Positions 3,909 to 14,712 of a DNA stretch of 64,000 bases are shown piece by piece (within the stretch, counting starts at the first letter, position 1; every line of letters begins with the position of its first letter). A model generated the notes under the pieces. That model was given only the letters and a program-made list of their open reading frames with translations, searched no databases and was not told where the DNA came from. The stretch spans positions 2,703,371 to 2,767,370 of the forward strand of contig OZ251535.1 of the NCBI GenBank assembly GCA_965243165.1, read 5' to 3'. Source of the stretch: Candidatus Spongiisociaceae bacterium (GTDB lineage Bacteria > Actinomycetota > Acidimicrobiia > Spongiisociales > Spongiisociaceae). Made by a program: the position numbers and the translations under genes.

Positions 3909-4123
3909 GCTCCTCAGGCCGCCCTCTCCGGTTTGCCAACTCTCCGAACAATGCGGGTTGGGCGCCGGTTCGTCTTGTATCCAGCAGATGATCTGTATAC
4001 CTGGTTCACTGCAATCGGCAACACCTGCGGTCGAAGACCGCTCGGCGGCGCGGCCCGCAGGCCGGGCGGGGCCGCCCAGGCCCACCTATGATCAGGGGTC
4101 CCATATGTGAGGAGCAAGCCCCT

Positions 4124-5608
4124 GTGAAGAGAAACCGCCGCCCAGCCGCCTTGGTGCTGGCCGCCGCCGGACTGACCGCAGCCTTGGCCCTGCCCTCGGC
4201 GGCGCAGAACAGCCCCGCCCCCGCCAGCTTGGATCCGGCCGGCTGCTCCAACGGAACTTTCGTATCCAACCCCTCCGCCAACCCGGGCCTCGCCGCCGAC
4301 TGCCGGGCGCTGGTCGCCGTCCGCAACCACTGGACCGCCGCCCCGGCGGCCGGCCACCCCCTCCTGACCTGGGGGCAGGGCGGCGCGGCTGTCATCACCT
4401 CTTGGAGGGGGGTAACGATCAGCGGCCGACGCGTCATCGCCGTCGATCTGAACGAAAGCGGGTTGGACGGCGCCGTCCCGCCCGAAATAGGCCGGCTCAC
4501 CGAACTCGCAACGCTCGACCTGAGCGGCAACCAGCTGACCGGGCCGCTGCCGCCTGAAATCGGCGGGCTCGCCAACCTCGAGCTGCTCATCTTGGAAGAC
4601 AACCAACTGACCGCCCTGCCGCCCGAAATCGGCCAGCTCACCAAACTCGCCAGGATCTATCTGGAAGACAACCAACTGACCGCCCTGCCGCCCGAAATCG
4701 GCCGGCTCACCGGACTCATAAGGCTCGATGCGGACGGCAACCGACTGACCAGTATTCCGTCCGAGATAGGCGGGCTCACCAAACTCACCAGCATCGACCT
4801 AGACGGCAACCAACTGACCCAGCTTCCGCCCGAGATAGGCCGGCTCACCGAGCTCAAGAGCCTCCATCTGGACGGCAACCTGCTGACCGAACTGCCGGCC
4901 GAATCAGGCCGGCTCGTCAATCTGAAGATTCTCAGCCTGAGGCGCAACCAGCTGACCGAACTGCCGCCCCAACTCAGCCGGCTCACCAGCCTCGAATGGC
5001 TCTATCTGGACGGCAATACTCTGTCGAGCCCCATCCCGCCGGAACTGGCGGACCAGCTTTGGCCCGAGTTCTGCGACGATGACAACAGCGGCCACGAATG
5101 GACCATCGAGCAAATCGCCCGCTGGGGGATCACCCTCGGCTGCGGCAACGGCGACTTCTGCCCCGGCGACGCCATCACCCGCAGCCAGATGGCCGCCTTC
5201 CTGCACCGGGCCGTCACCCACCGCTCAGGGGAACCCGCCGGCCCGGCCTCGGGGGGCAACCTCGCCGACGTAGACCAAGACGCCTGGTACCGGCCCTACG
5301 CCCAATGGGCGGCAGCCGCCGGGGTGGTGAGAACACCGGACGGAATGTTCGACCCCGGCGGGGAGGTCACCCGGGCGGACATGGCCGAAATGCTCACCGC
5401 CGCCTTTGACCACATCACCCCGCCCGCCGAAGCACGAGGAATCTTCACCGACATGGCAGACCAACCCGACGGCGTCGTCCGGGCCGCCGAAGCCCTCCGA
5501 ACAGCCGGAATAACCGCAGGATGCTCCGACAACCCCCTCCGCTACTGCCCCGACCAACCCGTAACCAGAGCCCAGATGGCCTCCTTCTTCTACCGCGCCC
5601 TGTCATAA
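4124..5608 (+). CDS. Secreted leucine-rich-repeat protein with C-terminal S-layer homology (SLH)-like domains
   Basis: gaggag RBS before GTG 4124. Signal peptide KRNRRPAALVLAAAGLTAALALPSAAQ, Cys cap CSNG...LAADC, about 10 LRRs (LxxLxLxxNxLTxLPPEIG), three SLH-like motifs ITRSQMA, VTRADMA and VTRAQMA. Confidence 0.9.
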   Translation: MKRNRRPAALVLAAAGLTAALALPSAAQNSPAPASLDPAGCSNGTFVSNPSANPGLAADCRALVAVRNHWTAAPAAGHPLLTWGQGGAAVITSWRGVTISGRRVIAVDLNESGLDGAVPPEIGRLTELATLDLSGNQLTGPLPPEIGGLANLELLILEDNQLTALPPEIGQLTKLARIYLEDNQLTALPPEIGRLTGLIRLDADGNRLTSIPSEIGGLTKLTSIDLDGNQLTQLPPEIGRLTELKSLHLDGNLLTELPAESGRLVNLKILSLRRNQLTELPPQLSRLTSLEWLYLDGNTLSSPIPPELADQLWPEFCDDDNSGHEWTIEQIARWGITLGCGNGDFCPGDAITRSQMAAFLHRAVTHRSGEPAGPASGGNLADVDQDAWYRPYAQWAAAAGVVRTPDGMFDPGGEVTRADMAEMLTAAFDHITPPAEARGIFTDMADQPDGVVRAAEALRTAGITAGCSDNPLRYCPDQPVTRAQMASFFYRALS

Positions 5609-5741
5609 CCGGCCATCAAGCCCCCCCCCGGTGGGGCGCGGAAGACACCCGCTCGCAAACCCCGTGAAATCAGCCGGCAACGCCGAAGGCCCCCTGCGGT
5701 GTTCTGTAGACTGGCAACAGCCGCCCTGAGGAGCTGCCTCC

Positions 5742-8700
5742 TTGAACAGAACCCGCCGCCCGACCGCCTCGGTCCTCGCGGCGGCCGGACTGACCGCACT
5801 CTTGGCCCTGCCCTCGGCGGCGCAGGACAGCCCCGCCGTCCCCGACCTGGACCCGGCCGACTGCTCCAACGGAACATTCGTATCCAACCCCTCCGCCAAC
5901 CCGGGCCTCGTCGCCGACTGCCGGGCGCTGGTCGCCGTCCGCAACCACTGGACCCGCCACCCCGACAACGCCGGCCTGTCTGTCTATCATCCTTTGCTGT
6001 CCTGGGGGAAAGAAGACCCAGATGACGCAATCTACGACACAGATGACAGCATCTACGACACCGTTGACATCACCTCCTGGCACGAAGTATCCGTATCAGC
6101 AGAACCCCAACTTCGCCCTCGGGTAACTAGCCTTACCCTTGATACCGCCAATATAACCGGCACTATACCACCAGAAATCAGCCAACTAACTAACCTCAAA
6201 CGCCTCAGCCTGGGCGGCAACCAACTAACCGGACCAATACCACCAGAAATCGGCCAACTTACCAACCTCCGCGAGCTCAGCCTGGGCGGCAACCAACTCA
6301 CCGGCACTATACCACCAGAAATCGGCCAACTTACCAACCTCCGCGAGCTCAGCCTGGGCGGCAACCAACTCACCGGACCAATACCACCAGAAATCGGCCA
6401 ACTTCCAAACCTACTTGTGCTTAGGCTAAGTTATAACGAGCTGACCGGACCAATACCACCAGAACTAGGACAACACCCCAATCTTTTTAGGCTCAATCTG
6501 AGCTACAACCAACTGACTGGACTAATACCACCAGAACTAGGACAACTCCCAAACCTCAAATACCTCCACCTAGAGTCCAACCAACTCACCGGACCAATAC
6601 CACCAGAACTAAACCAACTGATCAATCTCACAGATCTCTACCTAGAGTCCAACCAACTGGCTGGACCAATACCACCAGAACTAGGACAACTCACTTACCT
6701 CGAAGGGCTTTACCTGAGTAACAACCAACTCACCGGACCAATACCACCAGAACTAGGACAACTGGACAACCTCTTAACACTAGACCTCAGTTCCAACAAG
6801 CTGACCGGACCAATACCACCAGAACTAGGACAACTCCCAAACCTCTCTAGGCTCAAACTGGAAAACAACCAACTCACCGGACCAACACCAGTACTCTCCG
6901 TCGCCGACCTGAACCCTGACAACTGCTCCAACGAAACCTTCGTATCTGACCCCTCCGCCAACCCGGGCCTCGTCGCCGACTGCCGAGCGCTGGTCGCCGT
7001 CCGCAATCACTGGACCCGCCACCCCGACAACGCCGACCTCTCTATCCACGGCTTACGGTCCTGGGGATACAGAAAAACCGTCGACATCACCTCCTGGTAC
7101 GGAGTATCCGTTTCAGCAGATCCCCATCTTCCCCCTCGGGTAGAATCTATTATTCTAGGGCGTTATATAAGCGGTACTATCCCACCCGAAATTGGCCAAC
7201 TCACCAACCTCAAAGAGCTCATCCTGAAGAACGATCTGACCGGACCAATACCATCCGAAATCGGACAACTAACCAAACTCGAAAACCTAGATCTGAGCCA
7301 CAATCAATTCACCGGACCAATACCATCCGAAATCGGACAACTAACCAAACTCAAAAATCTAGTAATGAGAAACACCCAACTCACCGGGAGAATACCATCC
7401 GAAATCAGCCAACTCACCAACCTAAAATACCTCTTCCTAGAGTCCAACCAACTCACCGGACCAATACCGCTTGAAATCAACCACCTCACCAACCTCGCAA
7501 ACCTTGACCTGAGCCACAATCAATTCACCGGACCAATACCATCCGAAATCGGCCAACTCACCAACCTCACCAACCTCGACCTGAGCCACAACCAACTGAC
7601 CGGACCAATACCGCCAGGGATCAGCCAACTCACCAACCTCACAAAACTAGATCTCAGCTCCAACCAACTGACCGGTACACCACCAGATACCTCCCAACTC
7701 ACCAACCTCGCAATACTCAACCTCAGTTCCAACCAACTGACTGAACCAATACACACCGCCAGTACTGACCTGAATCCAGACCATTGCTCCAACGGACTCT
7801 TCGTACCCGACCCCTCCGACAACCCGGGCCTCGTCGCCGACTGCCGGACGCTGGCCGCCTTCCACAATCACTGGATCCACCGCCTTCCTCCTCGGTCATC
7901 CATCTTGACCTGGGGAAGAAGCAACACCATCAAGATCGCCTCTTGGAGCGGAATAACGATCAACGAGGGGCGCGTAACCACCCTTGATCTAGCCGGCGAA
8001 AAGTTAGCAGGTCCCATCTCGCCCGAATTAAGCCAACTCACCAACCTCACCAACCTCAACCTAAGTCGCAACCAACTCACCGGACCAATACCCACCCACC
8101 TCAGCCAACTCACCAACCTCACCAACCTCAACCTAAGTCGCAACCAACTCACCGGACCAATACCCACCCACCTCAGCCAACTCACCAACCTCCGCGAGCT
8201 CAACCTAAGCGGCAACCAACTCACCGGACCAATACCCACCCACCTCAGCCAACTCACCAACCTCCGCGAGCTCAACCTAAGCGGCAACCAACTCACCGGA
8301 CCAATACCATCCGAAATCGGCCAACTCACCAACCTTCGTGAGCTGTCCCTGAGGCACAATCAACTAACCCAACTACCACCAGAAATCGGCCAACTCACCA
8401 ACCTCAGATGGCTGTCTTTATATAAAAATCAATTCACCGGACCAGTGCCATCCGAAATCGGCCAACTCACCAAACTCGAAAACCTAGATCTGAGCCACAA
8501 TCAACTAACCCAACTACCACCAGAAATCGGCCAACTCACCAACCTCCAATATCTTGACCTAGAGTCCAACCAACTCACCGGACCAATACCACCAGAGATC
8601 GGCCAACTCACCAACCTCAAAACACTTTACATACACAACAACCAACTCACCGGATCAACACCACCAGAGATCGGCCAACTCACCAACCTCAAAACACTTT

Positions 8701-9779
8701 ACATACACAACAACCAACTCACCGGACCAATACCATCCGAAATCGGCCAACTCACCAACCTCGAAGAGCTCGTCCTTAGAAACAATCAACTCACCGGACC
8801 AATACCACCAGAGATCGGCCAACTCACCAACCTCAAATACCTCCTCCTAGAGTTCAACCAACTGACCGGATCAATACCACCAGAGATCGGCCAACTCACC
8901 AACCTCAAAACACTGCACATATACAGCAACCAACTCACCGGACCGATACCCACCCACCTCGATCAACTCACCAACCTCGCCAGCCTCGACCTGAGCGGCA
9001 ATCAACTGACCGGACCGTTGCCGCCGGAAATCAGCCAACTCACCAATCTATATTTCTTGGAGCTGAGTTGCAATGCCTTGACAGGACCAATACCGTCTGA
9101 GATCCTTCGACTCACCCGCCTTGGACGGCTCTATCTGGACGGCAACCATCTGACGGGCGCCGTCCCGCCGGAGCTAGAAGATCGATTGTGGCCCGCGTTC
9201 TGTGACGATGAAGACAGCGGCCACGAAGGGAGCATCGAGAACTTAGCCCGCTGGGGAATCATCCTCGGCTGCGGAAACAGCAACTACTGCCCCGGCAACC
9301 CCATCACCCGAAGCCAGATGGCCGCCCTCCTGCACCGGGCCGTCAGCCAGAGACATTCAGGAGAACCCGCCCCGGTTCCAGGAACGAACCTGGGCGATGT
9401 GGAAGAAGATGCCTGGTACCGACGCTATGCGGAGTGGGCGGTCGGCGCCGGAGTGATGAAAGCGCCGAACGGAAGGTTCGACCCCGGCGGAGCGGTCACC
9501 CGGGCAGACATGGCCGAAATGCTCACCGCCGCCTTCGACCACATCACCCCGCCCGCCGAAGCACGAGGAATCTTCACCGACATGGCAGGCCATGCCAACC
9601 GAGTGGTCCGAGCCGCCGAAGGTCTCCAAGCCAGGAGAATCGCCAAAGGATGCTCCGAAAACCCCCTACGCTACTGCCCAGACCAGCCCGTCACCAGAGC
9701 ACAGACGGCAACCTTCTTCTACCGCACCCTGAACTATCATCCACCCGGTTGGGACTACGGATTCCTGCCCGGCGGATAA
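5742..9779 (+). CDS. Large secreted LRR protein (three capped LRR modules, about 37 repeats) with C-terminal SLH-like domains
   Basis: gaggag RBS before TTG 5742, signal peptide, three caps of the form LxPxxCSNxxFVxxPSxNPGLVADC. Mostly 24-aa plant-like LRRs (LxxLxLxxNQLTGPIPPEIGQLTN). SLH motifs ITRSQMA, VTRADMA and VTRAQTA. Confidence 0.92.
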   Translation: MNRTRRPTASVLAAAGLTALLALPSAAQDSPAVPDLDPADCSNGTFVSNPSANPGLVADCRALVAVRNHWTRHPDNAGLSVYHPLLSWGKEDPDDAIYDTDDSIYDTVDITSWHEVSVSAEPQLRPRVTSLTLDTANITGTIPPEISQLTNLKRLSLGGNQLTGPIPPEIGQLTNLRELSLGGNQLTGTIPPEIGQLTNLRELSLGGNQLTGPIPPEIGQLPNLLVLRLSYNELTGPIPPELGQHPNLFRLNLSYNQLTGLIPPELGQLPNLKYLHLESNQLTGPIPPELNQLINLTDLYLESNQLAGPIPPELGQLTYLEGLYLSNNQLTGPIPPELGQLDNLLTLDLSSNKLTGPIPPELGQLPNLSRLKLENNQLTGPTPVLSVADLNPDNCSNETFVSDPSANPGLVADCRALVAVRNHWTRHPDNADLSIHGLRSWGYRKTVDITSWYGVSVSADPHLPPRVESIILGRYISGTIPPEIGQLTNLKELILKNDLTGPIPSEIGQLTKLENLDLSHNQFTGPIPSEIGQLTKLKNLVMRNTQLTGRIPSEISQLTNLKYLFLESNQLTGPIPLEINHLTNLANLDLSHNQFTGPIPSEIGQLTNLTNLDLSHNQLTGPIPPGISQLTNLTKLDLSSNQLTGTPPDTSQLTNLAILNLSSNQLTEPIHTASTDLNPDHCSNGLFVPDPSDNPGLVADCRTLAAFHNHWIHRLPPRSSILTWGRSNTIKIASWSGITINEGRVTTLDLAGEKLAGPISPELSQLTNLTNLNLSRNQLTGPIPTHLSQLTNLTNLNLSRNQLTGPIPTHLSQLTNLRELNLSGNQLTGPIPTHLSQLTNLRELNLSGNQLTGPIPSEIGQLTNLRELSLRHNQLTQLPPEIGQLTNLRWLSLYKNQFTGPVPSEIGQLTKLENLDLSHNQLTQLPPEIGQLTNLQYLDLESNQLTGPIPPEIGQLTNLKTLYIHNNQLTGSTPPEIGQLTNLKTLYIHNNQLTGPIPSEIGQLTNLEELVLRNNQLTGPIPPEIGQLTNLKYLLLEFNQLTGSIPPEIGQLTNLKTLHIYSNQLTGPIPTHLDQLTNLASLDLSGNQLTGPLPPEISQLTNLYFLELSCNALTGPIPSEILRLTRLGRLYLDGNHLTGAVPPELEDRLWPAFCDDEDSGHEGSIENLARWGIILGCGNSNYCPGNPITRSQMAALLHRAVSQRHSGEPAPVPGTNLGDVEEDAWYRRYAEWAVGAGVMKAPNGRFDPGGAVTRADMAEMLTAAFDHITPPAEARGIFTDMAGHANRVVRAAEGLQARRIAKGCSENPLRYCPDQPVTRAQTATFFYRTLNYHPPGWDYGFLPGG

Positions 9780-13289: not shown

Positions 13290-13632
13290 CAGCTCCAAGG
13301 TTGCCTGACAAGAACCCTCGCGCTACCAAGTCTCGAAGGTTCATTCCAACCCAAAGGCCCCCGAGACCGCGAAAATCAGCCCCCGCCGCTGGCAAACCCG
13401 GGCCCATCCCCCACCGCCGCCTCCTTCAACGAAAAACCGCCGGGCCGCACGAGGCCGCCCCCGGCCCGACGGGGCCGGACCGAACGGAATCCGTCTCTGA
13501 CCGCCGCCCTCTCCAGAACTCGCGGCGGTGTTTGTGCTTCAGTCCAATAGGTATACCAAAATTCGGGGCTTCCGTCTAGGGGTACGTATGTTCGGGGAAC
13601 TTTCGCGGACCCGACCGCTTCGAACCTCCGGC
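13290..13632 (+). repeat. Dispersed ~350-bp intergenic repeat, copy B
   Basis: gcagctccaaggttgcctgacaagaac...tgaccgccgccctctccagaactcgcggcggt...gtataccaaaattcggggcttcc...cgcttcgaacctccggcc. Confidence 0.9.
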
Positions 13633-13699: not shown

Positions 13700-14194
13700 C
13701 TACGCGGCCAAATCCAGGTCGCCCCCCGGGAAGTACCAAACATTGCCGGCGGCGTCTTCAAGCTTGGACGACAGGCTCACTTGACGCGAAGCCACATCCA
13801 CCGCAAGGCCTCTGGCGATGTATACCTCGACCACAGGGGCAAAGTCGCCGTCGCCTGAGCCGATGATGATCCGATCGAATCGAGCCGCGATGGAACGAAC
13901 GTCGTCCACCTGCTCGATGAGCGCGATGTCCGCACCGTTGGGCCCTCCCCTGGTGTACAGCTCGGCCGAAGGCCAGAACCACCGGATCAAGGGCTTGACC
14001 TGCTGGCCGACCTGCGGACTCGCGCCGATGACGACCCTGTCACCGCTGGCCACCGGCCCCGTGTATCGGTAACATTCCAGCGCCTGGTAGAAGGCCAGCA
14101 CCCCGGCCCTCGGCCCGCCCGCCAGATTCTCGATGTCGATCAGGTGGATAGTCTGACCGCCCGAAAAATGACTGTTCTTTCCTCTTGTGCCCAT
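13700..14194 (-). CDS. NYN-domain (LabA/DUF88, PIN-like fold) putative ribonuclease
   Basis: Acidic motifs LIDIENL, GPNGADIAL and IGSGDGDFAP typical of NYN. RBS AAGGAG 6 nt before the ATG. Less GC-rich than its neighbours. Confidence 0.85.
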   Translation of the reverse strand: MGTRGKNSHFSGGQTIHLIDIENLAGGPRAGVLAFYQALECYRYTGPVASGDRVVIGASPQVGQQVKPLIRWFWPSAELYTRGGPNGADIALIEQVDDVRSIAARFDRIIIGSGDGDFAPVVEVYIARGLAVDVASRQVSLSSKLEDAAGNVWYFPGGDLDLAA

Positions 14195-14234
14195 CTCATT
14201 CTCCTTTCGTCGTTGACGGATGGGTGTTTGACGC

Positions 14235-14642
14235 TTACTCACATTGCCTGGGCTGCTGTGATCGATGAGGCGCCATCGGTCGAATATGTTCGACGAGGCG
14301 CCATCGGTCGAATATGTTCGACGAGGCGCCATCGGTCGAATATGTTCGACGAGGCGCCATCGGTCGAATATGTTCGATGAGGCGCCATCGGTCGAATATG
14401 TTCGATGAGGCGCCATCGGTCGAATATGTTCGATGAGGCGCCATCGGTCGAATATGTTCGATGAGGCGCCATCGGTCGAATATGTTCGATGAGGCGCCTT
14501 TGGTTGATACGCATTGATTATTCGCATATGGGGTGGTGCATTTCCAACCGATACTCGTTATGCTGTAACAAATGGCCAATGTATAACGCATGTATAGCAA
14601 CCCGGATTGCAACTTCAGCAGAGCTGCTTCCACCGCCCTCAT
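14235..14642 (-). CDS. Putative upstream ORF running through the 28-bp array
   Basis: AAGGAG (14649-14654) 6 nt before ATG 14642, just downstream of a consensus promoter. The product is partly repetitive, so whether it is translated is uncertain. Confidence 0.4.
   Translation of the reverse strand: MRAVEAALLKLQSGLLYMRYTLAICYSITSIGWKCTTPYANNQCVSTKGASSNIFDRWRLIEHIRPMAPHRTYSTDGASSNIFDRWRLIEHIRPMAPRRTYSTDGASSNIFDRWRLVEHIRPMAPHRSQQPRQCE
14264..14498 (-). repeat. Tandem array: 8 full + 1 partial 28-bp units, no spacers
   Basis: + strand unit GAYGAGGCGCCATCGGTCGAATATGTTC starts at 14264, 14292, 14320, 14348, 14376, 14404, 14432, 14460 and 14488 (partial). Y=C in units 2-4 only. Contains the hairpin CGATG-N6-CATCG. 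Confidence 0.97.
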
Positions 14643-14674
14643 CTTGATCTCCTTCCAGAGGTAGTCAGGCGGGC

Positions 14675-14712
14675 ATTATAGCACACTTTCTCCGAATAGT
14701 GGTAATTCGGAG
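14675..14712 (-). promoter_or_regulatory. Extended -10 promoter (TGcTATAAT) with a perfect 8-bp inverted repeat over the -35 region
   Basis: Minus-strand TGCTATAAT at 14683-14675. CTCCGAAT-N7-ATTCGGAG at 14690-14712. Confidence 0.7.

Follow-up and report, generated by a model that had tools for sequence, protein, structure and literature searches.

Type III toxin-antitoxin loci are defined by a Rho-independent terminator placed between the repeats and the toxin gene, and the recognition between RNA and toxin is specific, in a sense that point mutations in the ToxI and CptI repeats often abolish toxin binding and neutralisation (PMC12283969). Another association of a nuclease with repeat-derived RNA is found in Bacteroides fragilis, where the NYN enzyme associated with a type III CRISPR (clustered regularly interspaced short palindromic repeats) system trims such RNA and behaves as an Mn2+-dependent, sequence-nonspecific single-stranded RNase (PMC11346440). 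The locus analysed here lies in a 64,000-nucleotide (nt) stretch of contig OZ251535.1 of a Candidatus Spongiisociaceae bacterium (hereafter the window, with positions counted from its first letter), in which a promoter, a leader carrying a tandem array of 28-nt units and a NYN ribonuclease gene follow one another on the minus strand. This locus is real and unusual, and the analogy it offers is that of a repeat RNA plus a nuclease, between which a functional link is plausible. We consider, with a probability of about 0.4, that the repeat-rich leader exerts a sequence-promiscuous control of NYN at the RNA level, as a self-target or a decoy, and that both elements do not form a cognate type III pair. 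This reading fits best because the arrays keep arising, persist and change freely, yet are dispensable.

The comparison covers the window locus (W) and the fetched homolog loci (L001-L114). The close NYN homologs are metagenome contigs that share the gene order of the window, i.e., amidohydrolase, phosphotriesterase-like protein, class III aminotransferase, NYN, thiamine pyrophosphate (TPP) enzyme and class V aminotransferase. In the relatives with the module at the same site the flanking genes are 82-98% identical, and the nearest named homologs of the flanking aminotransferase belong to metagenome-assembled genomes of Acidimicrobiia; the module is a self-contained transcription unit inserted into a conserved, operon-like gene run of this lineage, and its leader is in most cases largely taken up by a tandem array. 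In the syntenic clade, in which NYN is at least about 50% identical, the promoter, the long leader and the array directly 5' of NYN recur (L014, L110, L108, L112/113, L015-018 and L020-023), and an extended -10 element of the form TGCTAnnnT lies 250-520 nt before the NYN start in all relatives with an array. Comparable arrays are rare in the ~400 kb of about 90 other fetched loci. An earlier interpretation of the window from its letters (the sequence-only reading) had proposed, as a test, that arrays with a conserved hairpin recur upstream of NYN homologs: the arrays do recur in the syntenic clade, but the hairpin is not conserved. In all loci except the window, whose array is inverted, and L109, the leader sense strand is poor in C (GC skew of +0.12 to +0.57), and this composition points to a transcribed, strand-specific or RNA-level feature.

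The sequence of the arrays is far from constant. A-type arrays, with units of 29-30 nt, accompany the NYN proteins of L014 (93% identical to that of the window), L110 (88%) and L112/113, and a decayed version with a unit identity of only 76% is found in L108 (NYN 84% identical). B-type arrays are built from the 20-nt unit TTTGTAGGTAGTGCCTCGGG (L015, L017 and L018), and C-type arrays from the 20-nt unit GTTGTATGAAATGAGGACGG and its variants (L020-L023). The origin of the latter two can be traced through a single-copy stretch of L015, ATGAAAGGAGTGGTATTACAGGTTTTGAAGGTAG, which aligns with the last C unit and the post-array sequence of L021 with a score of 35 (null of 15.8 +/- 2.5, with a maximum of 27; the homology is seen by local alignment, the global one being uninformative). 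Relative to this anchor, the C-type arrays amplified the left segment and the B-type arrays the right one, within about 100 nt. B and C thus arose by separate amplification events in neighbouring segments of the leader, which makes at least two array births. Furthermore, copy number is polymorphic, because the leaders of L021, L022 and L023 measure 250, 270 and 290 nt, that is, they differ in steps of one 20-nt unit, in loci that encode an identical NYN protein; several assemblies break or have scaffold gaps inside the arrays.

Orientation and allele change as well. Once the A-type units of L108, L110 and L014 are reverse-complemented, their homology to the 28-mer of the window is evident (unit score of 34 vs a null mean of 10), whereas in forward orientation the comparison is not significant. 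The array-level scores (27 for the reverse complement vs 10 forward) and the multiple alignment of the units agree, and the degenerate edge unit of the window, once reverse-complemented (GATGAGGCGCCTTTGGTTGATACGCAT), aligns with the L110 unit GGTGCTGCGCCTTCGGTTGATGCAT. In its promoter, leader, spacer and NYN, the window is colinear with L014 and 93-95% identical to it, and only the array has been inverted between the window and its closest relatives. On the other hand, L108 and L112 are ~90% identical from the promoter through the array flanks, the ribosome-binding site (RBS) and the first 60-90 nt of NYN, beyond which the identity drops to 50-65%, with the breakpoint inside NYN; therefore, the same leader and array serve NYN alleles that are only about 50% identical.

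Characterised NYN enzymes, including MARF1, cut single-stranded RNA with little sequence preference. Under promiscuous control, NYN would cut or bind its own leader, a long 5' stretch of RNA that would be abundant and for the most part single-stranded, and this action at the RNA level would need no particular sequence. The amplification of a segment would multiply the target sites, strengthen the negative feedback on the NYN mRNA and supply a decoy that buffers the free enzyme, a toxin-antitoxin logic of the type III kind without a cognate, structured antitoxin. Unequal recombination would shift the copy number fast and thereby retune the set-point and, if transcription of the locus stopped or the leader RNA were lost (e.g., upon phage infection), NYN would attack cellular or invader RNA. 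The inversion of the array, the allele swap and the unstructured purine-rich units are as a non-specific single-stranded RNA sink predicts.

The folding predictions bear on this last point. Pseudoknot-free minimum-free-energy folds of multi-unit RNAs did not reveal a common within-unit structure: those of the window do not clearly exceed shuffled units in stability (z = -1.7), the units of L020/021 give a z of about 0, and the purine-rich 20-nt C-type units (L020-023) appear unstructured. The hairpin CGAUG-GCGCCU-CAUCG, on which the sequence-only reading relied, is possible in the window unit, but it competes with a second one, (G/A)UCGAA-CAUA-UUCGA(C), and the A/G polymorphism of the array weakens the first and strengthens, and so favours, the second. 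Rfam scans of the window region and nine related loci returned only one chance miRNA match. Candidate cores shared across array types (G[CT]GCCT[CT] or CGG(G)TTG) were considered and dropped, as the pairwise unit comparisons were not significant, and the units lack the 5-nt GGY/NN periodicity of the VIPR type.

Several observations weigh against promiscuous control. First of all, L109, L114 and L024 keep an intact NYN without an array, which makes the array dispensable; the sequence-only reading had expected that close NYN homologs would all have one, and this expectation failed. In L109 (NYN 79% identical, catalytic residues intact) neither array nor promoter is present, and in L024 the promoter is present and the array absent. 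In the long-read, 3.0-Mb contig of L114 the promoter is kept together with a leader of 350 nt that is rich in purines and free of repeats, and that an intrinsic terminator ends ~30 nt before NYN; this is the only such terminator, in a repeat-free locus (none is visible between array and NYN on reading the sequences of L014, L015 and L020), and it suggests that the leader could by itself serve as an RNA product or an attenuator. Secondly, no motif or structure common to all array types was found, and the occlusion of the Shine-Dalgarno sequence by the units was rejected, since they pair with the NYN translation start no better than shuffled ones. The transcription of the array, moreover, is something we infer from only two features, the conservation of the promoter and the strand skew. 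All array-bearing loci come from one lineage and from the metagenomes of one study, which limits their phylogenetic independence. As for the protein, NYN need not be toxic, because many members of its family are solitary and have no array. Finally, Ala-Ala ends the protein in 74 of 99 members of the NYN subfamily, with LAA throughout the window clade (13700-13708 in the window). This tail resembles the ssrA degron, suggesting that NYN may be a short-lived protease substrate, and its conservation hints that NYN itself could be the unstable partner, the opposite of the toxin-antitoxin logic.

The leaders also hold very short reading frames. In the purine-rich 20-nt units (L020 3700-3830, L021 250-370) a Shine-Dalgarno-like GAGGA is followed ~9 nt later by the mini-ORF (open reading frame) AUG-AAA-UGA or AUG-AAG-UAA, and the array-less leader of L114 (6625-6665) reads AAGGGAAGG-N6-AUG-AUG-UAA. 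They may serve in ribosome loading or as start-stop elements.

The anatomy of the locus in the window (Table 1) is, for the most part, as the sequence-only reading had described it. Tandem Repeats Finder (TRF) recovers the array with a period of 28, 8.5 copies and 99% matches (unit GAACATATTCGACCGATGGCGCCTCATC), and a pattern search with up to three mismatches finds eight full units in it and none elsewhere in the window (shuffles expect none). The units are contiguous and, by both methods, hold no unique spacers of the CRISPR type, and the single A/G difference is indeed carried by three consecutive units (14292-14375). The block was also rightly said to be less GC-rich than its surroundings, with 49-55% in leader and array and 64% in NYN as compared to ~70-75% in the flanks, and the extended -10 element is read where it had been placed. 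This element would be a strong promoter, although a scan for promoter hexamers misses it because a good -35 element is absent. The "perfect palindrome" just 5' of it is really an inverted repeat with a spacer between its arms. It might serve as an operator or mark where the upstream transcript ends and, since L014 keeps it and L108 and L112 do not, it is no constant part of the module. The non-repetitive part of the leader is partly conserved in L108 and L112 and contains one degenerate unit-like element (14539-14552) in the orientation opposite to the array. Between the array and the NYN start codon there are 67 nt, 93% identical to L014, where the AAGGAG lies. The absence of an intervening terminator was borne out by the consensus scan, with no terminator-like site in 14195-14262, and no protein antitoxin candidate was found in the module among the listed ORFs. 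The hairpins 3' of NYN are the probable end of the module transcript, although this evidence is weak because the hits of the scan are not above shuffle expectation.

Table 1. Features of the NYN locus, with positions in the window
Feature	Position	Strand	Basis and remarks
Inverted repeat CTCCGAAT-N7-ATTCGGAG	14690..14712	minus	8-bp arms, 7-nt spacer; read from sequence
Extended -10 promoter element TGCTATAAT	14675..14683	minus	Read from sequence
Non-repetitive 5' part of the leader (~150 nt)	14515..14668	minus	~95% identical to L014
Leader ORF, 135 codons	14235..14642	minus	ORF list; AAGGAG, then ATG; spans the whole array
Degenerate edge unit of the array	~14488-14514	minus	Array plus edge unit, 14262..14514
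Tandem array, 8.5 near-identical 28-nt units	14262..14498	minus	TRF and pattern search
Shine-Dalgarno sequence AAGGAG of the NYN gene	14201..14206	minus	6 nt upstream of the ATG
NYN (LabA/MARF1-like) nuclease gene	13700..14194	minus	164 aa, ending in ...DLDLAA; ATG at 14194, stop at 13700-13702
Two terminator-like hairpins with T runs	13356..13396	minus	Consensus scan; 3' of NYN, 5' of the TPP-enzyme gene

The leader ORF that spans the array is probably translated, although it is not a conserved protein. Its strong Shine-Dalgarno sequence and its ATG are kept in W, L014, L108 and L112 and in all A-type leaders, whereas its reading frame in the conserved stretch CAGCATAACGA differs between L014 and L108, as compensating indels lose and regain the frame; homologs of the peptide were not found and its sequence is not conserved. 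The array as a protein-coding repeat was likewise discarded: all three frames of the 28-mer are open in the window, but 28 and 20 nt are not multiples of three, the 20-nt units hold stops, and the frame and the missing homologs of the leader ORF speak against it too.

Could the array act, then, simply as DNA of changeable length? In a contingency switch of the variable number of tandem repeats (VNTR) kind, its length, orientation or composition would tune the expression of NYN with no interaction between NYN and the RNA; slippage or unequal recombination would change the copy number, rare inversions would flip the array, and the effect on NYN could come from the length of the leader, from Rho-dependent polarity or from translating the leader ORF. 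Such a switch suits the free variation of the arrays in sequence, period and orientation, and the single-unit copy-number differences between samples sharing an identical NYN protein are of the expected kind, although known contingency repeats mostly measure 1-7 nt. The inversion turns the sense-strand leader from G-rich to C-rich, and C-rich, G-poor RNA that is not translated is what Rho is known to prefer. Translation offers another route in the window, where the three array frames are open and the leader ORF with its Shine-Dalgarno sequence reads through, but units of 20-30 nt have no frame to shift where the leader is untranslated. Phase variation of restriction-modification genes is well documented, and the NYN family is linked to DNA methylases (see below); nevertheless, neither flanking inverted repeats nor a recombinase gene was found beside the window array. 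Taken together, we regard such a switch as unlikely, yet as a serious rival of promiscuous control.

A functionless minisatellite is, in our judgement, an improbable account of the same standing. The AT-rich, highly transcribed and weakly constrained leader of a horizontally acquired gene would be, in this case, a hot spot for tandem duplications, and NYN would be controlled in other ways. Sequence, period and orientation are not constrained, and neither an Rfam family, a conserved structure nor a shared motif was found; the L108 array, with its 76% unit identity, is decaying, L109, L114 and L024 have lost theirs with NYN intact, and all cases come from one lineage. Against neutrality, arrays of 5-9 or more near-identical units are kept in most lineages despite a synonymous divergence of the flanks of ~0.5, and the genomes of bacteria tend, in general, towards deletion. 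The occurrence of two or more independent amplifications within the same ~100 nt and the rarity of such arrays in the ~400 kb of other fetched loci count against it too.

The identity of the nuclease is clear. The 164-aa protein matches Pfam NYN (PF01936; E 4e-7, 31 bits vs a cutoff of 24.2), its sole Pfam match, as its sole PADLOC match is an NYN model; NCBIfam and PHROGs give no family assignment. The profile of the NYN family matches the LabA-like structure 2qip, and the AlphaFold model (pLDDT of 86) has 2qip and the MARF1 NYN domain as best Foldseek matches, both with a probability of 1.00. The acidic positions D20, D52, D89 and D115 vary little or not at all, and the active site is intact. 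The NYN RNase gene with its own AAGGAG RBS that had been read from the letters thus stands, as domain, fold and acidic residues agree. The protein does not belong to the ToxN/AbiQ, CptN or TenpN families, its fold being that of LabA-like/MARF1 NYN. Moreover, NYN evolves faster than the neighbouring genes: between L015 and L018 its omega is 0.72, as compared to 0.055 for the neighbouring aminotransferase, and between the window and the lineage of L015, L018 and L020 it is ~51% identical, as compared to 82-84% for the flanking proteins.

Fast evolution of the nuclease is one of the features that a canonical type III system would share, and the sequence-only reading had proposed a module of this sort for abortive infection or addiction. 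In a canonical system, NYN would cut the array into unit RNAs and the folded units would inhibit their cognate NYN. As an analogy of architecture the proposal is reasonable, given that a promoter, near-identical tandem repeats and an endoribonuclease gene stand in order and recur in relatives, and that the module has no candidate for a protein antitoxin. Beyond architecture, both the conserved hairpin and the cognate pairing fail. Apart from the absent terminator between repeats and gene and a fold that is not ToxN-like, the array RNA of the window would be the complement of that of a relative whose NYN is 93% identical, a single array type goes with NYN bodies that are ~50% identical, with the recombination breakpoint inside NYN, conserved structure was not found, and array-less relatives keep an intact NYN. 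The type III explanation is, furthermore, hard to reconcile with the rapid turnover of the arrays because of the specificity of the ToxI and CptI repeats. A cognate, processed antitoxin is not what these sequence comparisons show, and we deem it quite improbable.

The neighbourhood of the family gives a broader context. The NYN subfamily comprises 1,699 clusters at 50% identity (E <= 1e-10). Its more distant members (28-48% identity) have no arrays in any of 13 genome loci or 80 metagenome loci, and short palindromes or boxes that resemble operators are found, in place of arrays, in their promoter regions. In particular, L039, L056, L067, L068 and L090 show two to four CCATG-N8-9-CATGG palindromes over the promoter and the divergent gene, ~100-250 nt upstream of NYN, and L025 and L028 TTCACA/TGTGAA boxes upstream of NYN; both look like operator sites. 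A methylase gene of ~700 aa lies closely 3' of NYN in 17-18 fetched loci (e.g., L001, L002, L004 and L007, as well as L025-L028, L031, L105-L107 and others), and likewise in the three actinobacterial plasmid records checked by annotation, out of 13 records with a NYN match. Most of these loci, and two of the three plasmids, show a 4-bp overlap of the two frames. Among the three methylases scanned, all have the Pfam N6 methylase domain and match PADLOC specificity-subunit models, and one has a type I specificity domain; an N-terminal helix-turn-helix (HTH) may also be present, as read in one sequence rather than returned by a tool. The NYN-methylase pair often stands beside recombinases, type I restriction-modification genes or DUF262, and the window clade is a methylase-less offshoot of this family in defence-type neighbourhoods. 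The NYN family is absent from phage records and viral contigs, and the window 28-mer from viral contigs; the guide- or spacer-like reading of the array was set aside because these absences leave it without support.

An explanation through protein-binding DNA sites (operators, iterons or centromere-like repeats that regulate the NYN promoter or belong to a mobile island) is very improbable: a 20-nt period near two helical turns, the independence of orientation, the operator-like palindromes and boxes of distant homologs, the ParA-like gene of L021 and the AlbA_2/HATPase gene 3' of NYN in L020 and L021 would suit it, but the window module encodes no DNA-binding protein, the arrays lie in transcribed DNA downstream of the -10 element, no candidate binding protein changes along with the units, which are entirely different from locus to locus, the window, L015, L018 and L112 have neither the ParA nor the AlbA_2 gene, and a strand-asymmetric composition would not be expected.

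Promiscuous control can be taken one step further, into a scenario that we hold as rather doubtful, in which a NYN deprived of its methylase partner would be kept in check by the promiscuous decoy RNA of its leader, the copy number would set the threshold for abortive infection or addiction, and the repeats would be reborn locally. Should the leader indeed control NYN, the RNA-antitoxin (type III-like) systems would gain a fourth toxin fold unrelated to the others, with an RNA antidote that would need no cognate structure and for which almost any repeated single-stranded segment may suffice. The natural series of arrays, which differ in unit, copy number and orientation and include swapped alleles, would then lend itself to evolution tests. 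The large, uncharacterised NYN subfamily, usually coupled to a methylase on actinobacterial plasmids, is itself a candidate defence module and, were the arrays neutral, they would still be a clear example of minisatellites that are born repeatedly in a bacterial leader.

Other features of the region concern the site rather than the array. Some relatives have extra genes between NYN and the TPP-enzyme gene (L020 4510-7350, L021 1016-4043, L114 7463-9046), such as AlbA_2/HATPase_c_4, a ParA-like CbiA, small ORFs, a second amidohydrolase and a truncated duplicate of the N-terminus of the TPP enzyme. The site therefore behaves as a variable locus, and it looks like an insertion hot spot. Upstream of the module promoter, L108 (455-500) has a perfect direct repeat of 23 nt x 2, TTTATATTGAGCATTGGGTCAGC, of which L112 has one copy. 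Elsewhere in the window, two large ORFs (506 and 1345 aa, at 4088-9779) consist of 72-nt (24-aa) leucine-rich-repeat-like units, unusual for Acidimicrobiia.

How does the locus compare with known systems? Like the type III loci ToxIN, CptIN and TenpIN, it has one promoter, tandem direct repeats that are near-identical within each locus and an endoribonuclease gene, lacks a protein antitoxin, and belongs to a family linked to plasmids and defence contexts. Unlike them, its nuclease has the NYN fold and is not ToxN/AbiQ-like, there is no terminator between repeats and gene, the units measure 20-30 nt and have no conserved fold, some close relatives are repeat-free, and the sequence, period and orientation of the array change without a matching change in the nuclease; in the literature, no link between NYN and type III toxin-antitoxin systems was found. 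With the CRISPR-associated NYN of B. fragilis (PMC11346440) it shares a small NYN enzyme beside a repeat-RNA locus, but the module has neither spacers nor cas genes, and the kinship is that of a common Pfam family. In the VIPR systems, a RAMP protein is associated with a tandem-repeat vrRNA whose 5-nt YNNGG units guide it to DNA (bioRxiv 10.64898/2026.04.26.720920). Both have a protein gene next to a tandem-repeat RNA, whose transcription is predicted in our case; the absence of a RAMP protein, the 20-30 nt units and the lack of GGY periodicity set our locus apart.

The remaining parallels come from regulation and genome architecture. The MIRU-VNTR (mycobacterial interspersed repetitive unit) loci of Actinobacteria resemble the arrays in their units of tens of nt between co-directional genes, their variable copy number and the small ORFs that run through the units, but they are a dispersed family sharing one sequence, whereas the arrays described here are locus-specific and were born several times from local leader sequence. 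The NYN-methylase pair of actinobacterial plasmids and defence islands has the same NYN subfamily, motifs and C-terminal Ala-Ala; there, NYN mostly overlaps a ~700-aa putative HTH/N6 methyltransferase/HsdS-like fusion and has no array, whereas the window clade has a repeat-rich leader and no methylase. Sponge RNAs of the CsrB/RsmZ type carry iterated binding motifs, and the many copies of a short motif in the arrays could similarly titrate a protein, as the GGA-containing AUGAGGAC of L020-023, present every 20 nt, illustrates. This motif, however, does not occur in the other array types, the RNA is encoded in cis, directly 5' of the gene for the protein, and we know of no CsrA-type partner for NYN leader arrays. 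The 5' leaders of Escherichia coli rne and rnc, which RNase E and RNase III cut to regulate their own levels, occur in single copy and are both structured and conserved, whereas those of NYN are repetitive and turn over rapidly; what both would have in common is a long leader before a nuclease gene that serves as the enzyme's own substrate and sets its level.

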